Source of the DNA: an uncultured bacterium
GTDB taxonomy: Bacteria > Patescibacteriota > Patescibacteriia > CAIQCM01
DNA: 64,000 nucleotides
Reading direction: 5' to 3'
Assembly: GCA_963708045.1 (NCBI GenBank)
Contig: OY970181.1
Location: 323,740 to 387,739 of the forward strand
Below are positions 5,084 to 55,659 of the stretch, piece after piece. Both the position numbers and the translations under genes were made by a program. The notes under the pieces are model-generated. The model was not told the DNA's origin. It ran no database searches and saw only the letters and a program-made list of their open reading frames with translations. Position 1 is the first letter of the stretch; the number at the start of each line of letters is the position of its first letter.

Positions 5084-5133
5084 TAATATTCCGAAAGGAA
5101 TATTTGGCCGCAAGGCCTAGCTAGCGCGGGGCT

Positions 5134-7954: not shown

Positions 7955-8587
7955 TTGTTCAGAATTGTCGTTCTGAGTAGAAACAAGCGACGGAAACGGG
8001 TGCGAGCCCCGTACAGTCCATATATTAAAAATATGCACGAATCCGAAAAAATTGAAGAAGCAAAATATCATCTTTTGCGAATGAAAGATTCTTTAAACGA
8101 AGATGATATTTTTCGCTACGAATTAAATGCTTTTTTAGCATCTACACGTTCCGTTTTTCAATATGCGCTTGAAGAAATTCAACACCCTCCAACAGTCCCT
8201 AAAACATGGTATGACCAAGTTGTTAATCTGAGTAAATATGTTAAATTCTTTAAAGATAAACGCGATACGGTAATTCATCATAAACCAATAGAAACAGATA
8301 AAAATGTCGCTCTAGAAAATTTTGACACCGTACTCATAGAAGACGATGCAATCGCGATAGAAATACATGATTCAAATGAGGGTATTGTAGGGAGTTTTTC
8401 TACGATTAATACACCCCAAAATAGCGAAATAGGAGAAAGCGGTTCAAAAATTTCTTCAAGATGGTTTTTTGTCGATAGTCCGGTGGGTGATCCAAAAGAC
8501 AAGGAGGTCGTTTCGCTTTGTGAAAAATATTTGAAAGAGGCGGAATCTTTTGTTAGCGATGGTAAAACGAATGGATATTTAACCTAG
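7955..8587 (+). CDS. hypothetical protein (true start probably the internal Met near 8033)
   Basis: 210-aa ORF; N-terminal 26 codons are GC-rich and Arg/Lys-rich and likely spurious extension. Confidence 0.4.
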   Translation: MFRIVVLSRNKRRKRVRAPYSPYIKNMHESEKIEEAKYHLLRMKDSLNEDDIFRYELNAFLASTRSVFQYALEEIQHPPTVPKTWYDQVVNLSKYVKFFKDKRDTVIHHKPIETDKNVALENFDTVLIEDDAIAIEIHDSNEGIVGSFSTINTPQNSEIGESGSKISSRWFFVDSPVGDPKDKEVVSLCEKYLKEAESFVSDGKTNGYLT

Positions 8588-9146
8588 AATTATTCATAAA
8601 TATTTTTTTTGATCACCACTGATAGTTCAATAGCAATCACCAGACCAAAATAGTTGTTTATTGATCTGGTTAACCCGCTGTTAGAAGAACTGTGTCTGGT
8701 ATACGGGGTCCACTCAATAATTTGATGAGATAAGGTTTTTTGGGAATTACTGCTTAAGAAAGCCTAAAAGACAGTAAAATGAGACACCCTAAAATATTGA
8801 TTAATAGTGTCTCATTTGTCTCGTTTCTCAAAACAACTGTCGCATTTGTCGCATTTTGCCAAATCAACACCGACCTACTTGGGTCGGAAAGGTGGCCAAT
8901 CGAACCTCCTAAAACGCTTGTGGTGCTGGATAAGCGAAGTTCAAGACTGTGTCGGGGCACCAAAAATGATCTCAGTTCCCTGAGGTCATTTTTGTTTTGG
9001 CTCAGCGGGAAATAGTCATCATACGATAGCTGCGAGCGGGTTCGGCAAGAGCTTAATCTAGTTAGCCCGCCGATTATCTATTTCACGGGGGAATGTTTGT
9101 GTTTACACAAAAACTGCGCCAATCAAGATAGATCAGTAGTAAATAT

Positions 9147-13168: not shown

Positions 13169-14320
13169 GAATCCCTAATTTCAGCCATATTTTGATTATT
13201 ACCTTGGCTCTTGACGGATATTTTTGAATAGAGTATTATATCCACATTATCCACAGAGCCCGACATACTATGAGCAGTAACTTAACTCCTAATATGAAAG
13301 CCAGCGGCTAGCCGGATATTTTGTGTCCCAATGCCCGCTGGTTTGCCAGCGGTTTTCTTTTTAGAAAAATCAGTTCGGAAACTTTTTAGAGGGTGGCCCC
13401 TTACAAAAGATTCCGAAAACCTACTTCCGCGGAGGGCGGAAAGAGCAAGTCCGAATTTAGGAACGTTGACAACCAAGCAAAGAGTAATAAATGTAAGTAC
13501 GAATTTTGGTTTCCAAAAGAAATCAAAATTTCAGTTTTGTTAACGTACAAAACTGGAGCATCTAAAAATAACGTCAACGAATTTTTGTGGTTCTCGTCGC
13601 AATGGAGCAATCCAAAGCGACTACCGTCCTAGTATCAGACTGGGACGGATCCAGAATTCTCTGGAAGACATTAAGGGCGTACGGTGGATGCCTCGGCATG
13701 GAATGCCTATGAAGGACGTAGCAGCCTGCGATAAGTCACGGCGAGGTGGCAAGCAACCTTTGACCCGTGAATCTCCGAATGAGGAAACTCAATCCGATGG
13801 AAGATCGGATTATCTTGTGCTGAATATATAGGTACAAGAAGGGAACTCGGCGAAGTGAAACATCTCAGTAGCCGAAGGAAAAGAAAGAAAGGTGCAATTT
13901 TTATATCGCCTTTCGCGATTCACATGTCTTCGGATGTGTGTTCCGCGATCTGCGGTAAAAAGTTGTGCTCATTCCCCTAGTAGCGGCGAGCGAACGGGGA
14001 AGAGCTTAAACTCCAAAGTGTTAAGCATGAAAACGGGTGATATGTCGAAAGATGTGTTATCGCGTATCGTGTGGCGGTTGTAGGGCCTCATATACTATGG
14101 AGTGTTCAGACGTAAGCGTTGTTCGCCTGCATCGAACAAGCAAGGGTTACAAACGATATCTTCCCAAGCAGAACGGCCTGGAACGGCCGGCCATAGACGG
14201 TGACAGCCCGGTACGCGAATGGGGTTATCCCTTTGCAGTTTATGTTCTAGAGTAACACGGGACTCGTGAAATCCTGTGTGAAGTCGGGAGGACTTTCTCC
14301 CAAAGCTAAATACATTCCAC

Positions 14321-14360
<40 letters not shown>

Positions 14361-14980
14361 CAGCCCGGAAGGGCGATGAAAAGTATCTGAAACCGTATGC
14401 TTACAAGGAGTGAGAGTGGATAGCAATATCCATGATCGCGTTCCTATTGAAGAATGAGCCAACGAGTTTGCTGTATGTGGCAAAGTTTAAGCCCGAGAGG
14501 GCGTAGACGTAGTGAAAGCGAGCGTGAAAGCGCGTTCTCACTTATCAACTTTTGCGGTTTACCGCAGAAGTTGTTGAGTGAGTGAGTCGCATACACAAGA
14601 CCCGAAACCGGGTGATCTAGCCATGGCCAGGATGAAGTTTTACGAAAGTAAAATGGAAGTCCGAACACATAAGCTGTGCAACACTTTGTGATGAGCTGTG
14701 GCTGGCGGTGAAATTCCAATCGAACTCGGTAATAGCTGGTTCTCCCCGAAATAGCTTGAGGGCTAGCGTCGGTTAATAACTAATTGGTGGTAGAGCACTG
14801 AATGGGGAACGGTGGAGTGATCCTACGTTTCCCAACCAACCTCCGAATGCCAGTTAGTGTTCCCGACAGTCAGCACGTGGGGGCTAAGCTCCACGGTGCG
14901 CAACGGAAACAGCCGTTGATCTCCAACTAAGGACCTTAAATCTATGCTAAGTGGAAAAGGATGTGGAACGACTCAAACAA

Positions 14981-15011
<31 letters not shown>

Positions 15012-15818
15012 TAAAGAAAGCGTAACAGCTCACTGGTCGAGTTATTCTGCGCCGAAAATATACCGGGGCTAAGCATAGTTCCGAAGTTGAGGGTTCTATA
15101 ATTAACTTTATAGAGCGGTAGGGGAGTGTTTGAAACGCATTGAAGGCGAAGACGTGAGTCCCGCTGGAGTGTTTCGAAGTACGAATGTTGGCATGAGTAG
15201 CAAAAATTGATGTGAGAACCATCAACGCCGTAAGAGGAAGGTTTCCTGGGCAACGCAAATCGGCTCAGGGTGAGGCGATCCTAAGACGAGGCCGAAAGGC
15301 GTAGTCGATGGAAAAGCAGGTTAATATTCCTGCCCCTCAATGGGTCACTACCCAGACTGACGCATCAAAAATACACGGGCGCTCTTTGGTTATGCGCGTG
15401 TCTTAATTGGGCAACTGATTAGGACGCAGTCTGAACCGAAAGGGGAAGACAATCCGTGAATGTATGGTGCCCAGAAAACGTCTGGAGACTATCCTATTGA
15501 GTCCGTACCGTAAACCGACACAGGTCCTCGGGCACAAGTGTGCCAAGGCGGACGAGAGAAACATCGTTCAGGAACTAGGCAAAAAAGTGGCCGTAACTTC
15601 GGGATAAGGCCTGCCCTATCGCAAGATAGGGTCGCAGCGAGCGTCTATGAACCGACTGTTTATCAAAAACACAGGTCCCTGCTAAGTCGCAAGACGATGT
15701 ATAGGGGCTGATGCCTGGCCAGTGTCAGAACGTTAAGGGGAGATGTTGACTCCGCAAGGAGAAGGCATTGAACCGAAGCGCTGATGAACGCCGGCGGTAA
15801 CTATAACCGTCCTAAGGT

Positions 15819-16086
15819 GGACAACACTGCCTTAGTGAGGTAACAGACCTCCTTCGAACTTTGACTAGCCATTGTCAAAGAGGTAGAAGAAAATTTGGCT
15901 ATTTCGGTGAACCTCCTTGTTTAAAAACAAGGACAATACCGAGGCAACCTGCAATGTGCAGAGAGTCCGTAGAGACTACACGCCAAAGTTTAACAATTGG
16001 TTAAATAAGATATAGTCCGAACTGCTTAGTAATAAGCAGAGCGTGATTGAACACCACGCCATTACAAAGTGTAATGTAACAACAAG
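15819..16086 (+). ncRNA. group I intron in 23S rRNA (insertion after CCTAAGGT, E. coli position about 1917)
   Basis: Exon sequence CCTAAGGT | intron | AGCGTAATCCCTTGTCGGGTGAGTTCCGACC matches the uninterrupted 23S; 5' exon ends in T and intron ends in G; conserved group I core elements R (cagagagtccgtagagactacacgcc) and S (aagatatagtccgaac) are present; 268 nt, no ORF. Confidence 0.75.
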
Positions 16087-16369
16087 AGCGTAATCCCTTG
16101 TCGGGTGAGTTCCGACCCGCACGAATGGCATAACGAGTTCATAACTGTCTTGACGATGTACTCGGCGAAATTGCAAGTGGCGTGAAGATGCGCTGTACTC
16201 GCAGCTGGACGAAAAGACCCCGTGAAGCTTTACTACTCCTTGCCATTGGATCATGTTTACTTATGTTCAGCGTAGGTGGGAGCCGCAAGGCGCCAATGAG
16301 ACACCACCCTTATGTTGATATGATTCTTACTGCAAACCGTGAATCCGGTTAGCGGAACAGTGGCTGGAA

Positions 16370-16400
<31 letters not shown>

Positions 16401-16621
16401 CAGTAACGGAGGCGTTTACAAAGGTAGGCTTGGCTCGGATGGAAATCGAGCTCAAAGTGCAAACGCAGAAGCCTGCTTGACTGCGAGGGTGATGGCCCGA
16501 GCAGAGACGAAAGTCGAAGTTAGTGATCCGACGGTCCCTCAGAGGAGGGCCGAAGCTCAACAGACAAAAGCTACTCCGGGGATAACAGGCTGATCTTGCC
16601 CAAGAGTCCATATCGACGGCA

Positions 16622-16681
<60 letters not shown>

Positions 16682-16738
16682 TGGCTGTTCGCCAATTAAA
16701 GCGGTACGTGAGCTGGGTTCAGAACGTCGTGAGACAGT

Positions 16739-17114
16739 GAGAATACCCGCGCTGTCTAAAAATCAGATCCAAGTCGCAATTCACAAGATGCGAAAGGATT
16801 CCGGTGTTGTCGCAAGATAACACTGGAGCTAAATGCTGGAAAATCTGGTCCGATCTTCTTTGGAGAGAAGATCAAAGAACTCGCACTAGTCGCGCAAGCG
16901 ACTGACAACGTGACGAGCGCAGACAATCAGCAGGAAAGGTTCTTCCATTACACGTAGAACAATCAACAATGGAAAGAAAATCCTCAGAGACTACACGCCT
17001 GATAGCTAGAAACCCCTAGTGAAAGATATAGTCCGAACTCTATGGCGACATAGAGAGTGCATCAGAAATGATGCGCCGGTTCAAAATTTATTTTTTGAAT
17101 TCGCAACATAATTG
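16739..17114 (+). ncRNA. group I intron in 23S rRNA (insertion after GAGACAGT, E. coli position about 2593, the I-CreI-type site)
   Basis: Exon GTCGTGAGACAGT | intron | TCGGTCTCCTATCC; intron ends in G; R (cagagactacacgcc) and S (aagatatagtccgaac) elements shared with the first intron; 376 nt, no ORF. Confidence 0.75.
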
Positions 17115-17550
17115 TCGGTCTCCTATCCACTGCGAGCGTTGAAACTTGAAGGGATGCTTCCCTAGTACGAGAGGACCGGGAAGCACGAACCTCCCGTGTA
17201 CGTGTTGTCCTACCAAGGGCATGGCACGGTAGCGGAGTTCGGAGGCGATAAGCGCTGAAAGCATCTAAGCACGAAGCGCCCCCTAAGATTAGGTTTCGTT
17301 ATAGACTCCTCGGAGACGACGAGGTTGATAGGCAGTAGGTGTAAGGCCCGCAAGGGTTTGAGCCGAGCTGTACTAATCGGTCGAGTTCTCCAGGGAACTC
17401 TGGTAAAAAATCAGAGAACCACAAAAACGCGCTGAAGTTATTTCAGTTGCCGTACTTTACATTTAGTGAATATCGCGTCTTTTTTGATACGGTATTTGCG
17501 AACCAACGAGCGTAGCAGCGTCTTCGTTCTGTTATAAAATAAGTTCAGAG

Positions 17551-17670
17551 TCTTGGTGACCCAACCGCACTGGTCACACCCGTTCCCATCTCGAACACGG
17601 CAGTTAAGCAGTGCAGGGCTGATGATACTTGGGGCCAACCCGTCCCTGGGAAAGTAGGCCGTTGCCAAGA
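17551..17670 (+). rRNA. rrf: 5S rRNA
   Basis: TTGGTGACC...GGTCACACCCGTTCCCATCTCGAACACGGCAGTTAAGC...GGGAAAGTAGG...GCCAAGA; flanking processing stem aagttcagagtc/gaccctgaactt. Confidence 0.85.
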
Positions 17671-38789: not shown

Positions 38790-39776
38790 TTATTTTTTAA
38801 CGTTGTTAATGACGATCTTGGGTTTAATATGCTTGTATTTTTTGATCATCATTTTGATTTGTGTAAGCGTGAGCAAACCGTCCTGCGGCCCGATTTTCGT
38901 TACAACCGAAGCAGAGTTGGCCGCGCCCCAGCGCATTGCTTCGGGAACGGTGTAATCGTAAAAAAGCGCGGCTAAAAATCCAGTGGCAAAGGCATCGCCA
39001 GCGCCAGTGGTTTCTATGGCCTTGATTGGGAAAATTGGTAGATAGTATGTATTAATTGAATCTGATGCGTAAGCGCCGTTTTTGCCGTCGGTAATTACAG
39101 CAAGGTGCGGTCCGAGTTCGTGTAAGCGATAAAGCAGTCCAGGAATGTCGGTACTGTCGCCGACAAGTATTTCCGCCTCCTCGCGGTTTACAAAAACCAC
39201 TTCGGTGCGGCGCAATATTTCGCGCATTTTTTTAACACCTTCGCGCAAATGGCCGGTGCCGGGGTTGAAGGCAATTTTAGCGCGACACTTTTTGGAGTAA
39301 TTGATGATTTCTTTTTCAAGTTCGGCGTGCTGTTTTCCAATCGCCGTATAGTAAATCCAACGCGTCGGTTCAATTTCTTTGGGAAGCGAGTATTCGCGCG
39401 GATGAGAAAAAGTTAAAATTGTCCGATCGTCTTTAAAATTAATAACAACGGAATGGTTGGTTGCCGAGCGTTTTTGAACCTGCAAATATTTTAAGCTGAT
39501 TTTTTCGCGGCGCATTTTTTTTACGATTTGTGCGCCGGTATCGTCGTCGCCGATGACCGAATAAAATCCCGCCTTAAGCCCAAGCCGTGCCGAACCAACG
39601 GCGTTGTTTAGAGCATTTCCCGCGACTTTTTCGTGCAACGCCTGAATCGGAAGCTTGTCGCCAAAATTTAGGCAAAGCTGTTTGGATTTAATGCCGGCAA
39701 TGTCGTTTAACGAAGCATCGCGCAAGCGAACAAAAGTGTCCAAAGCCGCGTCGCCGATTGAAAGAATGTCTAGCAT
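38790..39776 (-). CDS. PfkB-family carbohydrate kinase (second copy)
   Basis: TTGAGDAFATGFLAAL motif. Confidence 0.75.
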   Translation of the reverse strand: MLDILSIGDAALDTFVRLRDASLNDIAGIKSKQLCLNFGDKLPIQALHEKVAGNALNNAVGSARLGLKAGFYSVIGDDDTGAQIVKKMRREKISLKYLQVQKRSATNHSVVINFKDDRTILTFSHPREYSLPKEIEPTRWIYYTAIGKQHAELEKEIINYSKKCRAKIAFNPGTGHLREGVKKMREILRRTEVVFVNREEAEILVGDSTDIPGLLYRLHELGPHLAVITDGKNGAYASDSINTYYLPIFPIKAIETTGAGDAFATGFLAALFYDYTVPEAMRWGAANSASVVTKIGPQDGLLTLTQIKMMIKKYKHIKPKIVINNVKK

Positions 39777-39931
39777 ATATTTGAATATCTAATGTCTAAT
39801 ATCTAATTTCTAATCCGACCAGCCGGAAACCCCGCGTCTCGGGGTGACGGCAACGGATTAGATATTAGGTATTAGTTATTAGATATTAAGTAATTATTAT
39901 ATCACAAAACCCCGACGCTGCGGGGTTTTGG

Positions 39932-40897
39932 CTATTTTCGTTTGATTACTTTTTTAACTGCTTTGACGACGTCTTTAGTTCCCATTTCGTAAAATTCTAA
40001 GAGTTCGTTTGGTTCGCCAGATTGACCGAACTTATCGTGAACGCCGACAAACTCCATTGGCACAGGGTTGTTTTGGACCAAAATTTCTGCGACCGCCGAA
40101 CCCATGCCGCCTTTTATTTGGTGCTCTTCAACGGTCACAACGGCGCCGCAATCGCGTGCCGCGGCAAGAATAGTTTTTTCGTCCATTGGCTTGATTGTGT
40201 GATTGTTAACAACGCGGCATTCAATGCCTTCTTTTGCCATTTCTTCGGCCGCTTGAAGCGCTTGATAAAGCAGTGGGCCGCAAGCAATAATCGCGACATC
40301 TTTTCCTTCGCGCACAACCATTGCCTCGCCGATTGTAAACGGCGTGGCGTCGTTTGTCATGACCGGTGTTTTTTCGCGGGCAAGCCGAAGATAAGCAGGG
40401 CCGATAATTTTGGCGATTTCAATCGTTGCTTTGCGCGCTTCAATCGCATCGCAGGGATAAATTATGGTTAACTCGGGAATACAACGAGTAATGGCCATGT
40501 CTTCAATCGCTTGGTGTGTGCCGCCGTCCGGACCTACCGAAACGCCAGCGTGTGAACCGATTATTTTGATGTTTGCCTCGCTAAGGCAGGCAGTGCGGAC
40601 TTGTTCCCAACTGCGGCCAGGGGAGAACATGGCGTACGAAGTGCAAAAGGGGACTTTCCCTGCAAGCGCGAGTCCGGCCGAGATGGTAACCAAGGCTTGT
40701 TCGTAAATGCCCATCTGAATAAAGCGGTCGGGAAATTCTTTTTTAAAGCCGTCCATCTTTGTTGACGCCGTGAGGTCGGCGCAGAGGGCGACAATGTTCG
40801 GGTCGGTTCGTCCAGCGATTACTAATCCTTCGCCAAACCCAACGCGAGTTGGATTTTGCACTTTGCCGCTAATGTCTAATTTAATTCTATCATTCAT
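39932..40897 (-). CDS. transketolase, C-terminal subunit (pyrimidine-binding and C-terminal domains)
   Basis: Split-transketolase architecture; 321 aa. Confidence 0.8.
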   Translation of the reverse strand: MNDRIKLDISGKVQNPTRVGFGEGLVIAGRTDPNIVALCADLTASTKMDGFKKEFPDRFIQMGIYEQALVTISAGLALAGKVPFCTSYAMFSPGRSWEQVRTACLSEANIKIIGSHAGVSVGPDGGTHQAIEDMAITRCIPELTIIYPCDAIEARKATIEIAKIIGPAYLRLAREKTPVMTNDATPFTIGEAMVVREGKDVAIIACGPLLYQALQAAEEMAKEGIECRVVNNHTIKPMDEKTILAAARDCGAVVTVEEHQIKGGMGSAVAEILVQNNPVPMEFVGVHDKFGQSGEPNELLEFYEMGTKDVVKAVKKVIKRK

Positions 40898-40955
40898 AAT
40901 TTTATTTTTTAAACTAAACCCTAAACCATAAATCCTAGACCCTAACCTCTAACCC

Positions 40956-41816
40956 CTATTGATTTTCTGAAATAATTTTTCCGCCAAGCGTTCGGAGTTC
41001 GTTAAGCGCTTTTTCGGCTTGTTCGGCGTTAGGAATAATGCCGTGCCATTCAAATTTGTATTCCATAAAGTCCACGCCCTTGCCCGCGATGGTATGCGCG
41101 ATAATGCAGGTGGGACGATCTTCGGTTGCTTTGGCTTCTTCAATCGCTTCAACAAATTGTCGAATGTTGTGACCGCCAACTTCTATAACGCGCCAATTAA
41201 ACGCTTCGTATTTGGCTTTTAACGATTCAAGCGGCATTACTTTTTCGGTCGGCCCGTCAATTTGAATATTATTGCGGTCAATAATAACGGTTAAATTGGA
41301 AAGTTTGTAAGCGCCGGCAAAAAGCAAGGTTTCCCAAACAATGCCGCAGTCTTGTTCGCCGTCGCCCATCACGCAATAAGTGCGCCAGCTTTTGCCGTCC
41401 ATCCGCGCCGCATAAGCCATACCGGCGGCTTGGGCAATACCTTCGCCAAGGGGTCCTGAGGTTGTTTCAAGGCCGGGGAGGTGTAGGCGTTCCGGATGTC
41501 CCTGAAGCCGAGAACCAAATTTTCGGAGCGTGAGCAGTTCTTTAACGGGAAAATATCCAGCTTCGGCCATTGCTGCGTAACGAACCGGACAAATATGGCC
41601 AGCCGAAAGAATAAGGCGGTCACGTTCCGACCACTCTGGATTTTTTGGGTCGTGATTTAAAACGTGAAAATAAAAAGCCGCAAAAACGTCGGCCATGTCC
41701 AAAGGTCCCGCCGAGTGTCCGCTTCCGGCCGCAACCAGCATTTTAATAATGTCCTCGCGAATCGTGTTGGCCTTGGCTTCTATCGCAAGGACTTTTTTAT
41801 CGGTCAGATCAAACAT
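40956..41816 (-). CDS. transketolase, N-terminal subunit (TPP-binding)
   Basis: GDGEQDCGIVWE and HTIAGKG motifs; 286 aa. Confidence 0.8.
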   Translation of the reverse strand: MFDLTDKKVLAIEAKANTIREDIIKMLVAAGSGHSAGPLDMADVFAAFYFHVLNHDPKNPEWSERDRLILSAGHICPVRYAAMAEAGYFPVKELLTLRKFGSRLQGHPERLHLPGLETTSGPLGEGIAQAAGMAYAARMDGKSWRTYCVMGDGEQDCGIVWETLLFAGAYKLSNLTVIIDRNNIQIDGPTEKVMPLESLKAKYEAFNWRVIEVGGHNIRQFVEAIEEAKATEDRPTCIIAHTIAGKGVDFMEYKFEWHGIIPNAEQAEKALNELRTLGGKIISENQ

Positions 41817-41930
41817 AAATTTATTTTTGGTTATGTTTTTTCAAAATGTTGTAATTTTATTATTATATCACGATTGTAAACAACAAAAAACTTCGCCATA
41901 AGGCGAAGTTTTTATGTCTTGTTTGAGAAA

Positions 41931-42344
41931 TTATTTTGTAACTTCCACGACGCCGCCAAAAGCCGGATTTAGGTGGTCGTGATAAAGCCAGCGGCCGGCT
42001 TTGTCAAAAGTATAACTGTAACTCGCGCCCGGAGAAATGTTGGTTTTGGCATCAAAGCCGGGGAGGGCGGTATGTGTTGGGTGTGGATCGGATGCTATCC
42101 AATGGATATGTGTTGAGTTGTTTTTAAAAGTCACAACCGTGCCGACTTTTACGTAAGCGGTTGTTGGTTCAAACGAGCCGTCTTCCATCATGAGCACAGT
42201 CATCGTGCCGCTCGCCGGATTATTTGGCGTGGTGCCGATTGCGGGGCCGTTCGTGTTTGTATTTGCGACCGGCGGATTTGTTTTTGCACAACCGGCGCCC
42301 ATAAGGGCGATCACGACAACGGCGAATAAGAGTTTTTTTCTCAT
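41931..42344 (-). CDS. cupredoxin-like (plastocyanin/azurin-type) copper-binding lipoprotein
   Basis: Lipobox LMGAGCAK; His/Met ligand context (HIHWIASDPHPTH...YHDHLNPAFGGVVEV). Confidence 0.55.
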   Translation of the reverse strand: MRKKLLFAVVVIALMGAGCAKTNPPVANTNTNGPAIGTTPNNPASGTMTVLMMEDGSFEPTTAYVKVGTVVTFKNNSTHIHWIASDPHPTHTALPGFDAKTNISPGASYSYTFDKAGRWLYHDHLNPAFGGVVEVTK

Positions 42345-42369
42345 ATTTTTTAAAAATTAATTTTAAAAT

Positions 42370-43014
42370 TTAAATTTTTGCGTCAGCGACGATTGAATTA
42401 TACGCGGCGGCAGGGTCTTTGGCTTTCCATAGTGCTGAGCCGACGATGAGTTCGTCGGCGCCCGCGGCAATGAGCTCGTGCGCCAAATGCGCCGTGTCAG
42501 TAATGCCACCGTCAACGCCGATTTTTATGTCGGGGTGGGCAGTGCGCAGTCCGTGAATGCGTCCGATGGTGTCGGGGTGAAAGGCTCGGCCTTGCGCCCC
42601 CGGGTCAACGCCAAGTAAAAGCACATAATCAACAAAGGCGATAAATTCTTCAAGCTCGGCCAAGTCGGTTTCGGGATTAAAAGCCAGGCCAAATTCGCGA
42701 TTAAATTTGCGGGCTCGTTCCAGCGCTTTTCCAATGTTGCCGCTGGCTTCGCGGTGAACGATAATTCTTTTGGCGCCGGCAACAATCCAATCGTCAACAA
42801 TGGCGTCGGGGCGCGCGACCATTAAATGTGCGTCAAAACGAAACGGATAGTGACTCGCGGCGATGATTTTGGGGTCAGCCCAACATGATTTTCCAAAAAG
42901 CGTGCCGTCTAAAACGTCAATTTGCACCGCTTTGGCAAAAGCGGCGGCTTGATTAGCTTTTCCGCTAAAATCTTTTTCGTTTTCCGCAAGAATTGCGGGG
43001 ATGACCGTGCTCAT
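42370..43014 (-). CDS. rpe: ribulose-phosphate 3-epimerase
   Basis: IDVLDGTLFG..., HLMVARPD, GVDGGI motifs; start taken at MSTVIPAIL (the ORF-track start at 43095 overlaps rpiB). Confidence 0.8.
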   Translation of the reverse strand: MSTVIPAILAENEKDFSGKANQAAAFAKAVQIDVLDGTLFGKSCWADPKIIAASHYPFRFDAHLMVARPDAIVDDWIVAGAKRIIVHREASGNIGKALERARKFNREFGLAFNPETDLAELEEFIAFVDYVLLLGVDPGAQGRAFHPDTIGRIHGLRTAHPDIKIGVDGGITDTAHLAHELIAAGADELIVGSALWKAKDPAAAYNSIVADAKI

Positions 43015-43466
43015 AGCAAACCTTGTTCGGTTTTTGAGATTTTTTGAAGACGTCGTTTGTGTCTTTCGGCGCCGGAAAATTTTGTCGTTAACCAAAGGCG
43101 AAAGATTTTTTTAGCGAGAATGGAATTTTTTGTGACGGTTCGTCCGCCGAGACAGAGAACGTTCGCGTTATTGTCCAAGCGCGACATTTTTGCGGTATAT
43201 GCGTCATAGCACGCCGCGGCGCGCGCGCCTTTTATTTTGTTTGCGGCAATACATTCACCAAGCCCCGAGCCGCCAAAGACTACCGCCCGCTCGCCCGTTT
43301 TCACAGCCGCCTTGACCGCCGGAAAAATAAAATCCGGATAATCATCTTCGGTGTCAAACGAAAACGCGCCAGCGTCAATTACCTTACAGCCGAGTTTTTC
43401 GGCGTATGTTTTTAGCGTTTCTTTAAGGCGGAAGCCGGCGTGGTCGGCGGCAAAATATAGGGTCAT
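43011..43466 (-). CDS. rpiB: ribose-5-phosphate isomerase B
   Basis: RpiB/LacAB family: DHAGF, GGSGLGECIAANK, LCLGGR. Confidence 0.85.
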   Translation of the reverse strand: MTLYFAADHAGFRLKETLKTYAEKLGCKVIDAGAFSFDTEDDYPDFIFPAVKAAVKTGERAVVFGGSGLGECIAANKIKGARAAACYDAYTAKMSRLDNNANVLCLGGRTVTKNSILAKKIFRLWLTTKFSGAERHKRRLQKISKTEQGLL

Positions 43467-43469
43467 AAA

Positions 43470-44108
43470 TTATCCTTTGGATTTGATGCGTTTGGCTTGT
43501 CGCAATTTAAAATATCCGGCCTTGGTATATTCGTCGTGAATGCAGGCAATAACTTTTTCCACCAAAATTTTCGGCTCGGAACTAAAAAATAGTTTGTTTC
43601 GTAATTCTTTTTTTGCCGTGTGCAAAAGGTGGGGGATTTCGTCGGCAATGCCGCCCGAACCAGCGAGCACACCAAGAATTTTTTCGTCTTCAAAAGCAAT
43701 TGTAAATTCGTTAAGCGAACCCATCCGTCCGCCGATCGTGATGACCGCATCGGCGGCGCGTGTCAGCAGAAGGTTGCGGCCGGAATAATTAAAGCCGGTA
43801 TAAACGATCACGTCGTGGTATTCAACCGGTAGGCGATAAGCGTTGACGTGCTCTTTTACCGTTGCAGCCGGAGAAAAACCAATCGCAATCCCGCCGCATT
43901 CGTAATTGCCCTTGGCGGCAAAAAGCGGCAGGCCAGTCGTGGCGCCAGTCAAAAGGATAGCGCCCTGAAGCGCGATTTGGCGGCCAACTTCGTAGGCAAG
44001 GTCGGCCGCGCCAGTGACGGTTTCGCCAGCGGCCGCGCCGGAAACGCAGATTTTGTATTGGTGCTGAAGATGTGCCGGGAGTAAGGATTGCTTTGGTTTC
44101 TTTGTCAT
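43470..44108 (-). CDS. TIGR00725/LOG-like Rossmann-fold protein
   Basis: ICVSGAAAG...GGRMGSLNE pattern typical of the LOG/TIGR00725 nucleotide-binding family. Confidence 0.5.
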   Translation of the reverse strand: MTKKPKQSLLPAHLQHQYKICVSGAAAGETVTGAADLAYEVGRQIALQGAILLTGATTGLPLFAAKGNYECGGIAIGFSPAATVKEHVNAYRLPVEYHDVIVYTGFNYSGRNLLLTRAADAVITIGGRMGSLNEFTIAFEDEKILGVLAGSGGIADEIPHLLHTAKKELRNKLFFSSEPKILVEKVIACIHDEYTKAGYFKLRQAKRIKSKG

Positions 44109-44160: not shown

Positions 44161-47100
44161 TTGCCAAAAAACGGTAATTTAACCTCTTCCCATCGGTATA
44201 AAAAATTATATATGGCCATCCCAAAATTTCCCGAACTTGAAGAGCAGATTCTTAAAGATTGGGATAAAAACGATATTTTTAACAAAACTTTGGCAAAACC
44301 CTCGCCAAAGGGGAATTTTATTTTTTTTGAAGGTCCGCCGACCGCGAACGGCAAGCCTGGCATTCACCACCTAATTGCCCGCCACTTTAAAGATGTCATC
44401 TTGCGTTATAAGACGATGAGTGGTTTTCACGTTGAACGAAAAGCCGGTTGGGACACGCATGGTCTTCCGGTTGAAATTGAAGTTGAAAAAAAACTTGGCT
44501 TTAAAAGCAAGCGCGACATTGAGGAATACGGCATCGCCGCTTTTAACAAACAGTGTCGCGAATCCGTTTGGCAGTTTAAACAGGCTTTTACCGAATTTAC
44601 CCACCGCTCCGGCTATTGGTTGGATTTAGAGCATCCGTATATCACCTACGATCCTAATTATATGGAAACGCTTTGGTGGATCGTTAAAAAAATAAATGAT
44701 CGCGGTTTTCTTTATGAAGCCAATCGCGTCGTGCCGCATTGTCCGCGTTGTGGAACAACGCTTTCGTCGCACGAACTGGCACAAGGGTATGCCGAAACCG
44801 AAGACACTTCTGTTTTTGTGCGCTTTAAAATTTTGGATGAGCGGTTTCCAAACACGAGTTTTCTTGTTTGGACGACGACGCCGTGGACGCTGCCCTCAAA
44901 CGTCGCTTTGGCTTTGGGTGAGAAAATTTCGTATTCGCTCATTGAACTTGCAGCGGGCGAGCGGCTTTTGCTCGCGACTGATCGGCTCGGCGTAATAGAC
45001 GGCGAATTTAAAAAAATATCAGAACATACCGGCAGTGAACTTGCGAATATTTCTTACGAACCGCTTTATAATTTTATTTCCTACGACGAAAAGAGTCATT
45101 ATACGGCTTTGGCTGATTTTGTTTCCACAACCGACGGCTCAGGCATTGTTCATATCGCGCCAATGTATGGCGCCGATGACTTTGCTTTGGGCGCGAAATT
45201 AAAATTGCCGGAAAAACATTTAATTAGCGAGCGCGGCGAATTTATGGAGGCGGTTAAGCCGTGGGCTGGAATGTTTGTTAAAAAAGCCGACCCGCTGATT
45301 ATTGAAGACCTTGCGAGCAGCGGCAAACTTTATAAAACAGAAAAAATAAAACACGAATATCCATTCTGCTGGCGCTGTAAAACGCCGCTCATTTATTATG
45401 CCAAGCCGTGTTGGTACTTTAAGACAACAGCGGTTGCGAGCGAAATGATCAAGGCCAACGAAACAATAAATTGGGTGCCGGAGCATATTAAGGAAGGGCG
45501 CTTTGGCGAGTGGCTTAAAGGTGTAAAAGATTGGGCGCTCACCCGCGAGCGTTATTGGGCAACGCCGCTTCCGGTTTGGAAATGTGCGGACGGTCACGTG
45601 ACCGTAGTTGGGTCGTATGATGATTTGGAAGAAAAACGTTTTACCGCCCCAGCACGACTTTTGCTAATGCGCCACGGCGAAGCGGAAAGCAATGTTTTGG
45701 ATATGATTGCAAGCGGCGAAGCTGGGCGCAAGGCGGATTTAACGGAACAAGGCGTTAAGATGGCCAAGTCAGCGGCAAAAAAATTAAGCAAAGAAAAAGT
45801 TGTGGCGATTTATGCTTCACCTTTTATGCGCACCAAAGAAACGGCTGAGCTGGTGGCAGAGACGCTTGGTCTGCCGGTTATATTTGACGACCGGCTTCGT
45901 GAAATAAATTCTGGGGCAATGGATGGAAAAACGGTTAAAGAATTTTACATCGCTTTTCCCGAGCCGTCCGACCGTTGGACGCACGCCCCTGAAGGCGGGG
46001 AAAATTTTTCCGAAACTAGAAAACGGATGATGGCTTTTGTTCGTGAAATAAACCTGAAACACGCAGGCGAAACCGTGCTTGTTGTCAGTCACGGTGACCC
46101 GCTCTACATTTTAGACTGTGTTTTTAACCGCGTGCCAGACGATAAGCTTAAAGAATGGCGCTATCCGGAATTTGCCCACCCAACCGAAGTAATCTTGCCA
46201 AACTGGCCAATAAACGACGATGGCGAGCTTGATCCGCATCGCCCTTATATTGATGAAATAAAAATTAAATGCGACAAATGCGGCAAAGAAGCGGCGCGCG
46301 TAAAAGACGTGATGGACGTGTGGTTTGATTCGGGAGCAATGCCGCTTGCTTCGTGGCATTATCCGTTTCAAAACAAAGAGCGCATAGACAAAGGCGTGTC
46401 GTTTCCCGCTGATTATATTTCTGAAGGCATTGACCAAACACGCGGTTGGTTTTATACGATGCTCGCGGTGTCAACATTGCTCGGCTACGACGCGCCGTAT
46501 AAAAATGTCATCACCCTAAATATGGTTTTGGACAAAAAGGGTTTTAAAATGTCCAAGTCCAAAGGCAACATCGTTGAACCGCAAAAGATTTTTTCCACTT
46601 TCGGTTCCGACGCCTTGCGTTTTTATTTCTTTTCCATAAATCAGCCGGGCGACTATAAAAAATACGACGACAAAGACGTGGACGCGGTCGTAAAAAAAGT
46701 TTTTCTTATCCTTTGGAATACGATGGAGTTTTGGAAAATGTCTAAAGACATGGACCATGAATCACGCACCATGGACCATGAACATATTATGGACGCTTGG
46801 CTTAGGTCGCGCACTGGAATACTCGTGAAGACGGTGACAGAAGAATTGGAAAAATATCATCCAACCGAGGCGAGCCGTGCCATTGCCGAATTTGTTAACG
46901 AACTTTCCACGTGGTATGTACGCCGTTCGCGCGATCGTCTGCGCACTGGCGCTTCCACCGAACCGCTCAAGGACGCGCTTATGACCGTCGCCAAACTGCT
47001 TGCGCCGTTTACGCCGTTTGTTGCCGAAGGACTTTACCGTGAACTTGGTGGAGAGCTGGAATCGGTCCACCTTTGCGATTGGCCGGAATATAAGGAAAAA

Positions 47101-47646
47101 GAAATTGACGCGGAACTTTTGCATGATATGGAAAGTATCCGCAAGATTGTTGAACTTGGTCATTCACTTAGGGACGACGCGCAAGTTAAATTGCGCCAGC
47201 CGCTTGCTGAATTTGAAATAGAAAAATTATCGCTCAAAAATAACGATGAATTGCTTCCGATTATTGCCGAAGAACTTAATGTCAAAGCTGTTCGCATTGC
47301 CGACAAAATTGAAGAGCGACAAAATTGGTTAAGCAAAACAATGTCTGGCTTTACTGCCGCCTTGCGCACCGAAATAACCACCGAGCTTAAACGCGAAGGA
47401 ATGCTTCGCGAGATTATGCGTCAGATAAATGATTTGCGCAAAGAAGCCGGGCTCACTGTTTCTGATCGCATTAAATTATATTTTGACGTTGATGATGTCA
47501 CGCTTAAGTCAGTGCTTACGACGGAAAAAGAACATTTGGCAACCGGTGCCCGCGCCGACGAAGTCGTCTTTGAGCCAACGGATGCCGCGCTTGCTCGCGA
47601 ATTGGAATTTGAAGGAGTGAAGGTTAAGATCGCGATTAAAAAGTAG
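44161..47646 (+). CDS. ileS: isoleucyl-tRNA synthetase (type 2) with an embedded histidine-phosphatase (phosphoglycerate-mutase-like) domain
   Basis: HIGH-type motif PGIHHLIARHF, KMSKSKGN, editing-domain and anticodon-binding regions. Between WKCADGHVTVVGSYDDLEE and LDPHRPYIDEIKIKCDKCG lies about 190 aa with LLLMRHGEAESN...LTEQG...IYASPFMRTKETAE...VLVVSHG (RHG phosphohistidine motif). Probable start at MAIPKF (about 44212). The ORF is continuous in one frame. Confidence 0.8.
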   Translation: MPKNGNLTSSHRYKKLYMAIPKFPELEEQILKDWDKNDIFNKTLAKPSPKGNFIFFEGPPTANGKPGIHHLIARHFKDVILRYKTMSGFHVERKAGWDTHGLPVEIEVEKKLGFKSKRDIEEYGIAAFNKQCRESVWQFKQAFTEFTHRSGYWLDLEHPYITYDPNYMETLWWIVKKINDRGFLYEANRVVPHCPRCGTTLSSHELAQGYAETEDTSVFVRFKILDERFPNTSFLVWTTTPWTLPSNVALALGEKISYSLIELAAGERLLLATDRLGVIDGEFKKISEHTGSELANISYEPLYNFISYDEKSHYTALADFVSTTDGSGIVHIAPMYGADDFALGAKLKLPEKHLISERGEFMEAVKPWAGMFVKKADPLIIEDLASSGKLYKTEKIKHEYPFCWRCKTPLIYYAKPCWYFKTTAVASEMIKANETINWVPEHIKEGRFGEWLKGVKDWALTRERYWATPLPVWKCADGHVTVVGSYDDLEEKRFTAPARLLLMRHGEAESNVLDMIASGEAGRKADLTEQGVKMAKSAAKKLSKEKVVAIYASPFMRTKETAELVAETLGLPVIFDDRLREINSGAMDGKTVKEFYIAFPEPSDRWTHAPEGGENFSETRKRMMAFVREINLKHAGETVLVVSHGDPLYILDCVFNRVPDDKLKEWRYPEFAHPTEVILPNWPINDDGELDPHRPYIDEIKIKCDKCGKEAARVKDVMDVWFDSGAMPLASWHYPFQNKERIDKGVSFPADYISEGIDQTRGWFYTMLAVSTLLGYDAPYKNVITLNMVLDKKGFKMSKSKGNIVEPQKIFSTFGSDALRFYFFSINQPGDYKKYDDKDVDAVVKKVFLILWNTMEFWKMSKDMDHESRTMDHEHIMDAWLRSRTGILVKTVTEELEKYHPTEASRAIAEFVNELSTWYVRRSRDRLRTGASTEPLKDALMTVAKLLAPFTPFVAEGLYRELGGELESVHLCDWPEYKEKEIDAELLHDMESIRKIVELGHSLRDDAQVKLRQPLAEFEIEKLSLKNNDELLPIIAEELNVKAVRIADKIEERQNWLSKTMSGFTAALRTEITTELKREGMLREIMRQINDLRKEAGLTVSDRIKLYFDVDDVTLKSVLTTEKEHLATGARADEVVFEPTDAALARELEFEGVKVKIAIKK

Positions 47647-47656
47647 TATAATCTAG

Positions 47657-47690
47657 CAAAAATAAAATGGCTCAAATGAGCCATTTTATA
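47657..47690 (+). terminator. terminator hairpin aaatggctcaaatgagccatttt after ileS
   Basis: Seen directly. Confidence 0.55.
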
Positions 47691-48161
47691 ATCGCTAAGC
47701 CCTTGACAAAACTGTGGATAAGTGTTATACTACTTCTTGTAAGGATGAACGACCGCCAATAAATTGAAAATTTAGGGAGAGAGACCCAAGGCCAATGGGA
47801 AAAAATGGCCACCTGATTCAGGCATAAGCCTAATCAAAGGACGCATTTGTTGTTGTCTCTAAAGACGAATACAAATGCGTCCTTTTTATTTTCCACGGGC
47901 GACGTGCAACGTGCCACGTGCCAACTCGCGACGACAGATGAGGAGAGGGAACGCTTGAGCAAACTCGCCTTCGGCGATCAGGCTCGGTGCGGCGTAAGGT
48001 ATGATTTGAATCGGTCTAACTGATTCGCTTCAACCCCAAGCCATTAACGGTGCTCGCTCCGGCGAAACACCTTCATTCCCTTTCTAATCCGTCTTCGTGA
48101 AACATTGAAGTGATTTTCTACCGGCGACTTAGTCGTCGGGAACAGTTTTCGGGAGGGTCAA

Positions 48162-48542
48162 ATGAATCTGAAGCAGATGCTTGATTACTGTGGTTACCAC
48201 GTGAATCCGCTTGAATGGATTGGCAAAAAATTCACCTTTGATCTGCTCGGGGTTGATGCGAGAGATAACTACGTCTTCACCGGTGAACCAATCGGGATGA
48301 ATGTACTTCCTCAGACTGTGGTTGGACTCATCACCGGGATCGCTCAAAGTGGCGGCGTTCGTTTGTTTGTCACCGTTCCCATTGTTCAGGCTTTCGGTGG
48401 CGCGGGTTCGCTCTCGCCCTACGAACTTCGGCTCAGGTATATTTTTCTTGAGCATACCGAAACTGGGCAATCAGTGGTTGTTTTCGACGAACAGCGCGGC
48501 CGGGAGTTTCTTTTGGGAGGCAGGTTGACAATTTCACCATAG
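48162..48542 (+). CDS. hypothetical protein
   Basis: 126-aa ORF in a GC-rich segment; overlapped by an antisense ORF (48129-48470) of similar length; orientation uncertain. Confidence 0.3.
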   Translation: MNLKQMLDYCGYHVNPLEWIGKKFTFDLLGVDARDNYVFTGEPIGMNVLPQTVVGLITGIAQSGGVRLFVTVPIVQAFGGAGSLSPYELRLRYIFLEHTETGQSVVVFDEQRGREFLLGGRLTISP

Positions 48543-49380
48543 ATCGCACCAGACGTCGTTGTCTAGATGCGAAAATATGAAGGAGGCAGGAGTGAGATAA
48601 AACAGCGCGGAGTGCGCACCCCAAGAAGTTAAGAGCTAGGCGTAAAAGCTGTATGCTTCAGACGGACTGGGGAAAAAATTCGGCCTGATGAGGGCTAGGG
48701 CTGCCAATCCCGACAAAAACTTGACGCCAGACCCAAGGTAAGGCACGAATCCGGGGGTGCTTACACAAAGTTTGCCATTGAAATGGCGAGCTATGTGTAA
48801 GCATATGTTTTTAGAACGTAATCTTGATTGCGTTCTGAAAACTTACTAGAATAAATAAATCCTCGCAGATATAGGATAAGAAATGAAAATATTTTTTGTC
48901 CCGTCTCCGCGAAGAAAATAGCGACGTTTGAAAATGCGAGATTTCGCATACGTTCGCTAATGCGGAACGAGTGAGAGGTGGGAAGATGATAAGCCCAGTG
49001 ACAGATCCGTTTGATGCTTTGAATTTTTTCAACGCCGAGCTTGGTCCGGATGGAGAAGGGGGGCACGACCTTGGCTTGGCCGCCGACTCCGATGGTATCC
49101 ATCGGGATACTGATTACGAGCAAGAAGTGCTGACCGCTATGCGTCGGGACGAATCGGAAATTCTTCTGAATCAGCCACGTGCTACGTTTGTCGGGCGAAA
49201 AAAAGGCTCGCCGCGGTTTACTCGCGCCGACCGAAAACTGCTTGAGTGCAGGTAAGACTCAACCCTTTACGCCCCACACCAACCAGCCGATTCGCGGCCG
49301 TTGGTGTGGGGAAAAGTTTTTAGAACGGAATTATTATTTTTTCCGGTCTGAAAACTTTTTGGACATTGTTTCCTCTGTAT

Positions 49381-49465
49381 GGCACCGCCTGCGAAAGTCA
49401 GGCAAGACACCCTGGACCACCAGGAGCAGGGTAATCGTGTGGGTTCAAATCCCAACGGTGTCACC
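49381..49465 (+). other. tRNA-like cloverleaf without a canonical anticodon loop (possible tRNA pseudogene or tRNA-like element)
   Basis: Acceptor GGCACCG/CGGTGTC, hairpin gcctgcgaaagtcaggc, arm ACCCTG...CAGGGT, T-arm-like TGGGTTCAAATCCCA, then A-CC; no 7-nt anticodon loop could be drawn. Confidence 0.3.
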
Positions 49466-49762
49466 TCGAGCTAACTTCTTAGGAAGTTAGTTTTTTGTTT
49501 GACGTTTTGTTTTGCGATTGCTAGTCTAAATCAGATTCATGCCGCACTAGATTTGCATCTAAAAGGAGAAAGCCGATGGTTGACTCAAAGGAAGATAACG
49601 AAGTTCGTGGACTTTTGGCGCAACGGCAAGCTGGTCGCGAGCGCGCGGAAACGGAAGAGCGCGAACGTGTCCAATGCCCGGTTCTTTCAAGAATACCGAA
49701 CGAACTTATTACTGAGGATGAAAATGATTAGTCCTCAGGTATCATTAATCTCCAAGCTACGC

Positions 49763-54681: not shown

Positions 54682-55659
54682 ATGTTTCGTGAAATAATTG
54701 ATCAAAAAGAATGGAACGAATTGTATTCCCAGGCCATTTCGGCTTCGGGAAAATTTTTACAATCTTGGGAATGGGGCGAATTTCAAAAATCCTGCGACCG
54801 AAAAGTTTACCGACTCTCAAACGACGGCGCAATCGCTCAGATTATTGAATTGCCGTTGCCGTTTAATAAAAAATATTGGTTTTGTCCGAAAGGCCCTCTC
54901 ATGAACCATGAACCACGTACCATGAACAATACGTTTATTGATGAATTAAAAATATGCGCAAAAAAGGCGGGAGCGGTTTTTTTGTGTATTGAGCCAGCAG
55001 ACGTTATTGCTAGTGGAGGAAGTCAATCCCATGACAGAAGTCCAAGGGCGACAAGTATCGTTGATCTTACAAAATCCGAAGACGAGCTGCTTTCCGCAAT
55101 GCACCAAAAGACACGTTATAATATTAAAGTCGCCGCCAAGCACGGCGTCGTAGTTGGTTCATGGTCTCAGCCAAAGGCTGATCCGCCTCGGGCGGACATG
55201 GTTCATGGTTCATTTGATCACGTGTGGAATTTATTTTCAGAAACGGCGGCGCGCGATGGTTTTCACTTGCACCCGCGCGAATATTATGAAAGGCAGATTA
55301 AAATGCCGAACATTGAAGTGTTTATTGCCGAGTGTGAGGGAAAAATTCTAGCTGCGGCTGTTGTTATATTTTCTAACGGCGTTGCGACATATTTGCACGG
55401 TGCGTCGGCAGGCGAAATGCGTAATGTAATGGCGCCATACGCGCTGCATTGGGAAATTATAAAAAATGCCAAAGCGCGAGGTTCTATAAAATATGATCTT
55501 TGGGGAATTTCCGACGACCCCAAGTCTGGCTGGGCGGGGATCACTCGCTTTAAGCGCGGTTGGGGCGGGGTAGATTTTAGTGCACCCGGCACCTATGACT
55601 TGCCCGTAAGTCGTTTCTGGTATAGCGTTTACACGTTAGCACGCCGGTTGCGTTTTTAA
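54682..55659 (+). CDS. FemAB-family peptidoglycan-bridge peptidyltransferase carrying in-frame repeat insertions
   Basis: FemAB fold pattern (W..GWGGVDF..., KYDLWGI); ccatgaacc-type repeat at 54901-54930 and its inverse with an inner hairpin at 55156-55214. Confidence 0.65.
   Translation: MFREIIDQKEWNELYSQAISASGKFLQSWEWGEFQKSCDRKVYRLSNDGAIAQIIELPLPFNKKYWFCPKGPLMNHEPRTMNNTFIDELKICAKKAGAVFLCIEPADVIASGGSQSHDRSPRATSIVDLTKSEDELLSAMHQKTRYNIKVAAKHGVVVGSWSQPKADPPRADMVHGSFDHVWNLFSETAARDGFHLHPREYYERQIKMPNIEVFIAECEGKILAAAVVIFSNGVATYLHGASAGEMRNVMAPYALHWEIIKNAKARGSIKYDLWGISDDPKSGWAGITRFKRGWGGVDFSAPGTYDLPVSRFWYSVYTLARRLRF

Follow-up and report, generated by a model that had tools for sequence, protein, structure and literature searches.

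The 64,000-nucleotide stretch of DNA analysed here (the window) comes from contig OY970181.1 of assembly GCA_963708045.1, positions 323,740 to 387,739 of the forward strand, and belongs to an uncultured bacterium of the Patescibacteria or candidate phyla radiation (CPR). Its plus strand carries ileS, the gene for isoleucyl-tRNA synthetase (IleRS), and inside this gene lies a histidine phosphatase module of about 190 amino acids. A preliminary description, made from the sequence without database searches, had read ileS as one continuous frame at 44161-47646 with a phosphatase domain inserted at 45640-46230 (residues 494-690). The open reading frame is indeed uninterrupted and encodes the whole synthetase together with the insert, and the insert limits were correct to within a few codons. 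The start had to be moved: the 17-residue extension initiated by TTG 44161 is not kept in the alignment with an 84%-identical relative (L081), so the start is placed at ATG 44212 and the coding sequence becomes 44212..47646, encoding 1144 amino acids.

The host enzyme is a type 2 synthetase (IleRS2). Against TIGR00392, the equivalog model for ileS (cutoff 621), the whole protein reaches 850 bits; it aligns with the IleRS2 structure 8c8w at E = 2e-241 as against 4e-96 for the IleRS1 structure 8c9f, and has the IleRS2 structures 8c8u/8c8v as its best solved matches in Foldseek (TM 0.78-0.80). Its C-terminus is DUF5915, the type 2 C-terminal domain, without the zinc-binding domain of IleRS1. The KMSKS, TTTPWTLP and GxGxVH motifs and the editing aspartate are present in the window protein and invariant in the family. 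The CP1 editing motifs TTTPWTLP, GSGIVHIAP and YGADDF are intact at 44872-45183, in columns that are invariant in a 66-sequence family alignment, as is the KMSKS loop motif at 46546-46560, where K779, S781 and K782 are invariant. Relative to the 84%-identical relative, dN/dS is 0.04-0.10 for the synthetase core and 0.128 for the C-terminal domain. The host therefore appears from its sequence to be a functional, editing-competent type 2 IleRS.

The class I signature of the window protein reads P-G-I-H-H (44356-44370), a non-canonical GxHH in place of HxGH; this form recurs in 103 of the 106 motifs that could be read in the 120 closest homologues. The GXHH motif has been tied to mupirocin hyper-resistance in IleRS2 (PMC10485003). 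The window protein reaches 744 and 763 bits against the NCBIfam exception models for MupA and MupB, which have a cutoff of 1900, and 313 bits against NF040702 (ileS_w_GNAT, cutoff 1999); it has no GNAT match in Pfam.

The module interrupts IleRS at a position that we call site A. Host sequence before it runs through the first half of a zinc knuckle to the last host residues (VWKCADGH...VVGSYDDLEE, 45574-45648), where the alignment with 8c8w breaks, and C475 (C458 in the numbering trimmed to the ATG start) is invariant in the 66-sequence alignment. In this first knuckle half (45574-45597) the window protein has C-A-D-G-H against a family consensus of C-x-x-C-G, and in the window subclade histidine may replace the second cysteine as zinc ligand. 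The module (45649-46221) ends in a linker of about 20 amino acids that follows its PF00300 core, and host sequence returns at 46228-46335 with LDPHRPYIDE, the second knuckle half KCDKCG, whose cysteines C687 and C690 (trimmed numbering) are invariant in the family, and the nucleotide-site strand DVWFDSG; KMSKS follows about 75 residues on. Residue 477 of the query corresponds to residue 461 of the 8c8w chain and the alignment resumes with residue 687 at chain residue 483, so that about 209 residues stand where an ordinary IleRS2 has about 21. At the DNA level the flanking motifs are about 840 nt apart in the window and about 255 nt apart in 62 ordinary IleRS2 genes of other phyla, and an insert-less relative (L085) is continuous across site A. 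The connective peptides of IleRS comprise CP core, ED, CP2 and CP3 (PMC11685878). As the Rossmann/HUP core of Priestia megaterium IleRS2 consists of residues 40-168 and 513-632 (PMC10485003), chain residues 461-483 belong to the last connective peptide, which would place site A in CP3.

The identity of the module is supported by profile, structure and active-site evidence. PF00300 (His_Phos_1) matches residues 500-668 of the open reading frame (45658-46164; E = 4.4e-39). The score is 134.6 bits, the cutoff being 21.7, and the match, which covers profile positions 1-171 of 194, separates the two halves of the tRNA-synt_1 match. In the predicted structure the inserted segment forms a confident alpha/beta model resembling solved histidine phosphatases. 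The catalytic set is complete (R504-H505-G506, N511, R557, E581 and H644), and the peptides quoted in the preliminary description are found at 45658-45693 (LLLMRHGEAESN), 45817-45849 (SPFMRTKETAE) and 46075-46101 (VLVVSHGDP). H505, the predicted phospho-accepting nucleophile, lies with R504 in the RHG motif at 45670-45675, and both residues are kept in all 226 embedded IleRS copies in which the residue is present and in 10 of 10 from valyl-tRNA synthetase (ValRS). R557, the second phosphate-pocket arginine (45829-45831, in S-x-x-x-R-T-x-E-T-A), and H644, the second catalytic histidine (46090-46092, in VSHGDP), are each conserved in 231 of 231 embedded copies. The predicted proton donor E581 (45901-45903, in RLREI) aligns with the RL/I-x-EI segment of PhoE and PspA in alignments to 1ebb and 4ij5, and among the 231 copies this position is glutamate in 215, aspartate in 15 and alanine in one. 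The central statement of the preliminary description, that a type 2 IleRS carries a histidine-phosphatase domain with an intact catalytic signature between segments that are normally contiguous, is thus borne out by the PF00300 match, the 8c8w alignment and the alpha/beta model.

Its label 'PGAM-like' holds for the superfamily and fails for phosphoglycerate mutase itself. The insert alone scores 94.5 against 225 for NF038349 (dPGM_arch), 36.5 against 81.7 for TIGR01258 (pgm_1) and 24-60 against 261-421 for the remaining gpm models. The nearest solved enzymes are PspA (4ij5, E = 4e-24) and PhoE, a phosphatase of broad specificity (1h2e/1ebb, about 2e-21), with glucosyl-3-phosphoglycerate phosphatase (GpgP), TIGAR and CobC more remote. 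The models for PspA-type phosphoserine phosphatase, CobC alpha-ribazole phosphatase and the RNase H-acid phosphatase C-terminal domain (NF045917, TIGR03162 and NF005567) gave 97 against 350, 89 against 162.9 and 112 against 326. By sequence comparison these types are the closest relatives of the insert, which is a member of none of them by NCBI criteria. Taken together, the matches identify the insert as a complete histidine phosphatase of branch 1, of the same kind as PspA, PhoE, GpgP and CobC. With a median pI of 6.3 the domain is close to neutral and does not have the basic character of an RNA-binding domain.

The insertion is old. All 120 closest homologues (45-100% identity, 1109-1257 amino acids) combine PF00300 with the IleRS domains, which answers the question whether related genomes carry the same insert. 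Those with names are mostly Patescibacteria, Uhrbacteria and Parcubacteria, and many are called only 'class I tRNA ligase family protein' at NCBI. Eighteen insert-bearing loci were found in species-representative genomes labelled Yanofskybacteria, Paceibacteria, Spechtbacterales and similar. In a neighbour-joining tree built from the IleRS body, without support values, the enzymes with the module at site A group as a single clade. The insert is more variable than its host, with a mean identity of 39% against about 60% for the core; the pairwise identities of insert and host body are correlated (Pearson r = 0.75, 2145 pairs), and comparison with the 84%-identical relative gives the insert a dN/dS of 0.129, at a dS of about 1-1.5 that is close to saturation. 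These patterns show vertical inheritance across a large Patescibacteria/CPR clade under purifying selection.

The phosphatase also exists as a separate gene, and this gene is found beside ileS. Neighbouring genes were examined for five free-standing relatives that share 35-45% identity with the insert. The gene for P0157 runs 10 nt into the start of an ileS of the same strand (L085-087), those for P0154, P0179 and P0180 abut a convergent ileS (L083, L089, L090), and for P0127 (L088) the contig ends directly after the phosphatase gene. In the four informative cases the adjacent ileS has no insert and argS lies upstream; at the loci examined the neighbours were synthetase genes and not metabolic genes. 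The insert-less IleRS of L083 (8540-11434, minus strand) has H-Y-A-T for HxGH, the final histidine being missing. A metagenome collection was then scanned with the P0157 group and the 80 best loci, 47-100% identical to P0157, were classified. Forty-six have a stop-bounded phosphatase frame of about 200 amino acids followed, after a median gap of 7 nt, by a complete ileS on the same strand; in 25 the phosphatase is embedded in IleRS, one is ambiguous, eight have too little flank and none is unlinked. The free form thus belongs to a cluster of argS, phosphatase and ileS genes, in which it mostly precedes ileS by a few bases, and its linkage to ileS has persisted through considerable divergence. 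Since the insert-less IleRS of the L085 type nests within the site-A clade of the neighbour-joining tree, and its phosphatase is up to 59% identical to embedded copies, the split and fused forms have interconverted. As a separate polypeptide the phosphatase evidently remains able to do its job.

Capture of this domain has not been confined to site A or to IleRS. A search of 1.84 billion representative proteins with the insert alone returned 25,810 matches at E <= 1e-3, 24 of them at E <= 1e-30, and architectures were surveyed among the 150 best. Besides free-standing proteins of about 190 amino acids and tandem two-domain proteins of about 400, these include ValRS, with 948-1018 bits against the ValRS equivalog cutoff of 704. 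Two of the ValRS proteins (P0227, P0238) carry the domain in the homologous zinc hairpin, in the order VPAWYCRDC, His_Phos, KCKCG, DTLDTWFSSG, and two others (P0189, P0187) carry it elsewhere, about 20 residues after DTWFSSG. Every ValRS copy retains the catalytic set. Among the 120 closest relatives of P0227, about 25 ValRS proteins have PF00300; they come from Falkowbacteria, Kuenenbacteria and Uhrbacteria and are scattered among insert-less CPR ValRS of about 880 amino acids, and one such ValRS was confirmed on a 78-kb contig. Multiple copies also occur, with two tandem phosphatases at site A of IleRS P0129 and four in the ValRS fragment P0156.

Two further positions are used in IleRS: site B, between DxWFxSG and KMSKS, and site C, about 75 residues after KMSKS and just before the anticodon-binding domain. 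Copies at sites B and C are found in the P0140 cluster, P0198, P0215 and P0128. These enzymes belong to a second IleRS lineage, which is deeply separated from that of site A and has the canonical HYGH motif. Its named members are Gracilibacteria, Peregrinibacteria and Peribacteria, and nearly all of its members have PF00300. The domain was captured independently at three sites in two IleRS lineages and at two sites in ValRS. We considered a link between the phosphatase and the GxHH motif and rejected it: the site-B/C enzymes have HYGH, and ValRS has HLGH with or without the insert. IleRS proteins of Gracilibacteria and Peregrinibacteria (P0406-P0488, relatives of P0140) reach 1200-1860 amino acids, and one of them, P0488, has a precomputed match to PF01797, which we take to be the Y1 (IS200-like) transposase family.

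In the second lineage the same three sites also house other enzymatic modules. P0417 has a GNAT domain at site B and His_Phos at site C, the type modelled by NCBIfam as ileS_w_GNAT; P0467 and P0482 combine His_Phos with a P-loop module resembling AAA_33, AAA_18 and Zeta_toxin; P0456 carries a Ser_hydrolase module and P0418 a DUF559 nuclease-like module. P0466 has a HAD_2 phosphatase at site B and no His_Phos anywhere in the protein, and its HAD module resembles COG0546/phosphoglycolate-phosphatase-type enzymes. The best solved match of the kinase-like module is the polynucleotide kinase-phosphatase Pnkp1 (4xrp), a weak one (E = 7e-4) that covers mainly the P-loop, and the GNAT and HAD inserts resembled solved structures only weakly or in a generic way. 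No kinase module was found among the Pfam matches of the window protein. Because a non-homologous HAD fold occupies the same site, the survey suggests that phosphatase chemistry is the selected property.

The closest evolutionary precedent is offered by CAAD, a domain of class I synthetases in cyanobacteria (PMC4893482). In that case Curt1, a protein that also occurs on its own, was captured repeatedly as an internal domain within one phylum; ValRS and IleRS are among the hosts, there are alternative insertion points and related species have the genes side by side (PMC4893482). The captured protein here is a phosphatase of about 190 amino acids. CAAD is a non-catalytic membrane anchor located away from the catalytic domain (PMC4893482), whereas the module of the window protein has an intact active site, lies in or beside the catalytic domain near KMSKS and has no transmembrane segments. 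The curated ileS_w_GNAT model likewise describes an IleRS with an extra enzymatic domain, and the GNAT-bearing enzymes of Gracilibacteria and Peregrinibacteria mostly carry His_Phos too, but the window protein is without GNAT and belongs to a different IleRS2 lineage. The IleRS2 of Priestia megaterium (8c8u/8c8v/8c8w) shares the fold, DUF5915 and the GxHH motif (PMC10485003) and has a loop of about 21 residues in place of the phosphatase of about 190. Phosphatases of the PspA/PhoE/GpgP/CobC type (4ij5, 1h2e, 6s2q, 6e4b) are free, usually dimeric metabolite enzymes, unlike a domain within a monomeric synthetase. CP1 of IleRS, ValRS and LeuRS and the leucine-specific domain of LeuRS are also hydrolytic or accessory domains nested in the class Ia Rossmann fold; CP1, however, acts hydrolytically on aminoacyl esters and is found in all of these enzymes, intact also in the window protein, and the phosphomonoester hydrolysis expected of the phosphatase would be a different chemistry, one not known to play a part in the aminoacylation cycle.

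No description of a phosphatase-bearing synthetase was found in the full-text literature, subscription-only papers being outside this coverage, nor in a 2026 preprint on IleRS domain evolution, and we found no paper describing the phosphatase-bearing or the GNAT-bearing IleRS architecture. The sequences and their Pfam matches are already public, as the ileS_w_GNAT model and a JGI automatic annotation of one protein ('isoleucyl-tRNA synthetase/phosphohistidine phosphatase SixA/...GNAT') demonstrate. Synthetases bearing extra domains are of a known kind; what is new is an acquired domain that is a second, unrelated catalytic activity.

The remainder of the window has the following features. Divergent from ileS, on the minus strand at 38790-44108, is a pentose-phosphate cluster. 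It encodes two kinases of the PfkB family, ribulose-phosphate 3-epimerase, RpiB, a SLOG (LDcluster4) protein and a transketolase whose N- and C-terminal parts have a gene each (40956-41816 and 39932-40897). This order (SLOG, rpiB, rpe, tkt, pfkB) is common only to the close relatives L081, L001 and L003, and the neighbourhood of ileS therefore gives no clue to function. Downstream of ileS, about 2.1 kb (47647-49762) contain no open reading frame longer than 126 amino acids and no Rfam match; L081 is also poor in reading frames after ileS. A FemAB-family gene lies at 54682-55659 and another downstream of ileS in the contig of P0003; the family uses aminoacyl-tRNA as donor for peptidoglycan cross-bridges. 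The 23S rRNA gene (13661-17395, 3735 nt) matches the 2925-position Rfam model end to end and contains group I introns at 15809-16039 and 16729-17055. It is followed by 5S rRNA (17552-17670), and no 16S rRNA was detected anywhere in the window. An intron-bearing 23S rRNA arrangement is typical of CPR genomes. The Rfam family LOOT matches at 5003-5118 (77 bits, gathering score 46.4).

The partnership of the phosphatase with class Ia synthetases is evident at the genomic level, and from the conserved active site we infer an active phosphomonoesterase with a synthetase-tied function. In the predicted reaction H505 would attack a phosphomonoester held by R504, R557 and H644, E581 would act as proton donor, and the phospho-histidine formed would then be hydrolysed. 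Our preferred reading, to which we give a probability of roughly 55%, is that this active subfamily is a dedicated partner of class Ia synthetases and that the phosphatase, tethered to or co-expressed with the synthetase, serves the aminoacylation reaction. That its chemistry is mechanistically coupled to tRNA charging, making it a new catalytic accessory of class Ia synthetases, is a more tentative proposal that we hold somewhat short of even odds; it could, for example, take phosphate off the tRNA acceptor end or off the KMSKS loop of the enzyme itself, or break down phosphorylated inhibitors or by-products in the active site. A regulatory or moonlighting module is also possible. Among the candidate substrates we prefer, more tentatively still, a small phosphorylated compound that the synthetic site binds or produces, such as a nucleotide-type monophosphate or a pyrophosphate-like compound; the module would then clear or control something that otherwise inhibits charging. 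This choice is favoured by the close characterised relatives, all of which are small-molecule phosphatases, by the near-neutral domain, by its working in trans and in multi-copy arrays, and by the HAD analogue of COG0546 type.

Several observations weigh against a dedicated role in aminoacylation. A general product-clearing role leaves the restriction to Ile and Val unexplained; none of the candidate substrates accounts for this choice, and the shared permissive loops of these paralogues may be part of the answer. Repeated insertion near KMSKS and the co-occurring P-loop kinase-like modules fit a macromolecular substrate (the tRNA end or the synthetase) at least as well. The insert falls below the curated cutoff of every named His_Phos family, and the 72 linked metagenomic loci represent one subfamily from related samples and not 72 independent events. 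No His_Phos gene was found near ileS in 62 non-CPR IleRS2 loci, nor near any of the three insert-less ileS genes of the second lineage (L092, L093 and L094). This failure of the reverse neighbourhood prediction implies that the partnership is lineage-specific and not universal. In L092 a YbaK-type tRNA_edit gene (8109-8585) begins 1 nt after ileS; in L094, a locus distant from the window, rpiB overlaps the start of ileS, and a small Ser_hydrolase/PGAP1-like gene (8332-8841) converges on ileS and abuts it. In L093 the plain ileS lies 4 kb from a ValRS gene with an embedded His_Phos, which hints that the phosphatase may reside in either enzyme.

Four other explanations were weighed. Insertions within essential genes frequently turn out to be mobile elements, and these abound in CPR genomes. 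The window's own 23S rRNA has two group I introns and some related IleRS proteins have DUF559 nuclease-like inserts; an artefact, a recent foreign insertion, an intein-like element or a dead pseudo-enzyme could therefore be suspected. The data already contradict all of these, and we regard them as very improbable. The same in-frame architecture occurs in hundreds of independent assemblies, the base composition of the insert is the same as that of its flanks, no repeats flank it, no Hint or intein family is among the Pfam matches of the window protein, and the junctions (...DDLEEKRFTAPARLLL... and ...NWPINDDGELDPHRPY...) are not intein-like. With the 120 of 120 homologues, the invariant catalytic residues, a dN/dS of 0.13 and the co-divergence of insert and host, these results also overturn the earlier suggestion of a recently inserted foreign domain tolerated in a surface loop. 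A housekeeping phosphatase, acting for instance on phosphoserine or a sugar phosphate, might instead have lodged in or beside constitutively expressed synthetase genes of tiny genomes, in permissive IleRS and ValRS loops and without any mechanistic tie to aminoacylation. In keeping with this, PspA (a phosphoserine phosphatase), GpgP and PhoE are the best matches in sequence and structure, the module works as a separate gene in many relatives, ileS adjoins the pentose-phosphate genes in the window and close relatives and rpiB in L094, and CAAD shows that stand-alone proteins can be captured recurrently without a catalytic role in charging (PMC4893482). We nevertheless consider it unlikely: at least five independent internal insertions are confined to two paralogous synthetases, a non-homologous phosphatase occupies the same site, the linkage to ileS holds in 72 of 72 loci of one subfamily across 47-63% identity, and at the loci examined the free form keeps company with synthetase and not metabolic genes. 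Such patterns of capture and linkage are hard to obtain without selection for the pairing.

The two remaining explanations give the phosphatase a macromolecular substrate. It might act on tRNA(Ile) or tRNA(Val), at the acceptor end or at another broken end, and remove a phosphate (3', 2' or derived from a cyclic phosphate) or a pyrophosphate, so that damaged or toxin-modified tRNA becomes chargeable and RNA end-healing is built into the synthetase. Sites A (before DVWFDSG), B (before KMSKS) and C (after KMSKS) flank the ATP and acceptor-end part of the catalytic domain, and site B corresponds to the position of the leucine-specific domain of LeuRS, which lies just before KMSKS and contacts the tRNA acceptor end. 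Kinase plus phosphatase, as combined in P0467 and P0482, is moreover the make-up of end-healing enzymes, and the best solved match of the kinase-like module is Pnkp1. That match is weak and mostly to the P-loop, however, and we know of no RNA-end phosphatase in the histidine phosphatase superfamily. The domain is not basic, its closest relatives and the HAD analogue are small-molecule enzymes, and a general need for repair would not be confined to the Ile and Val synthetases. Repair of tRNA ends thus seems unlikely, though it is a little better placed than lodging by chance. Alternatively the phosphatase could act on the synthetase itself, removing phosphate from, for example, the KMSKS serine and so reversing inactivation by a kinase. 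HipA-type and HipT-type toxin kinases phosphorylate the KMSKS serine in GltX and TrpS, the insertion sites bracket KMSKS and the superfamily includes protein phosphatases. The closest relatives, however, are metabolite phosphatases and not SixA or PGAM5, and a reset in cis would need neither arrays of two to four copies nor a free-standing form; this we rate as improbable, the least likely of the explanations apart from an artefact or mobile element.

Few enzymes have been studied as thoroughly as the aminoacyl-tRNA synthetases. The nested catalytic domains known in them are editing hydrolases, and to our knowledge the textbook aminoacylation cycle includes no hydrolysis of a phosphomonoester. 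A phosphatase that is conserved and has an intact active site is therefore unexpected in the catalytic body of a synthetase, the more so for its spread across the radiation, its recapture by IleRS and ValRS and its HAD counterpart. Metabolic reconstructions of CPR bacteria could also mistake the His_Phos match for a phosphoglycerate mutase or phosphoserine phosphatase. If the more tentative proposal, a phosphatase mechanistically coupled to tRNA charging, is correct, the IleRS and ValRS of these bacteria would have a third enzymatic function beside synthesis and editing, and the three loops around KMSKS would be docking sites for modules (phosphatase, kinase-like, GNAT and esterase-like) that protect or repair charging. 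The pattern suggests a previously unrecognised need in these ultra-small symbiotic bacteria, whether for clearance of products or inhibitors, for repair of tRNA or enzyme, or for defence against toxins directed at charging.

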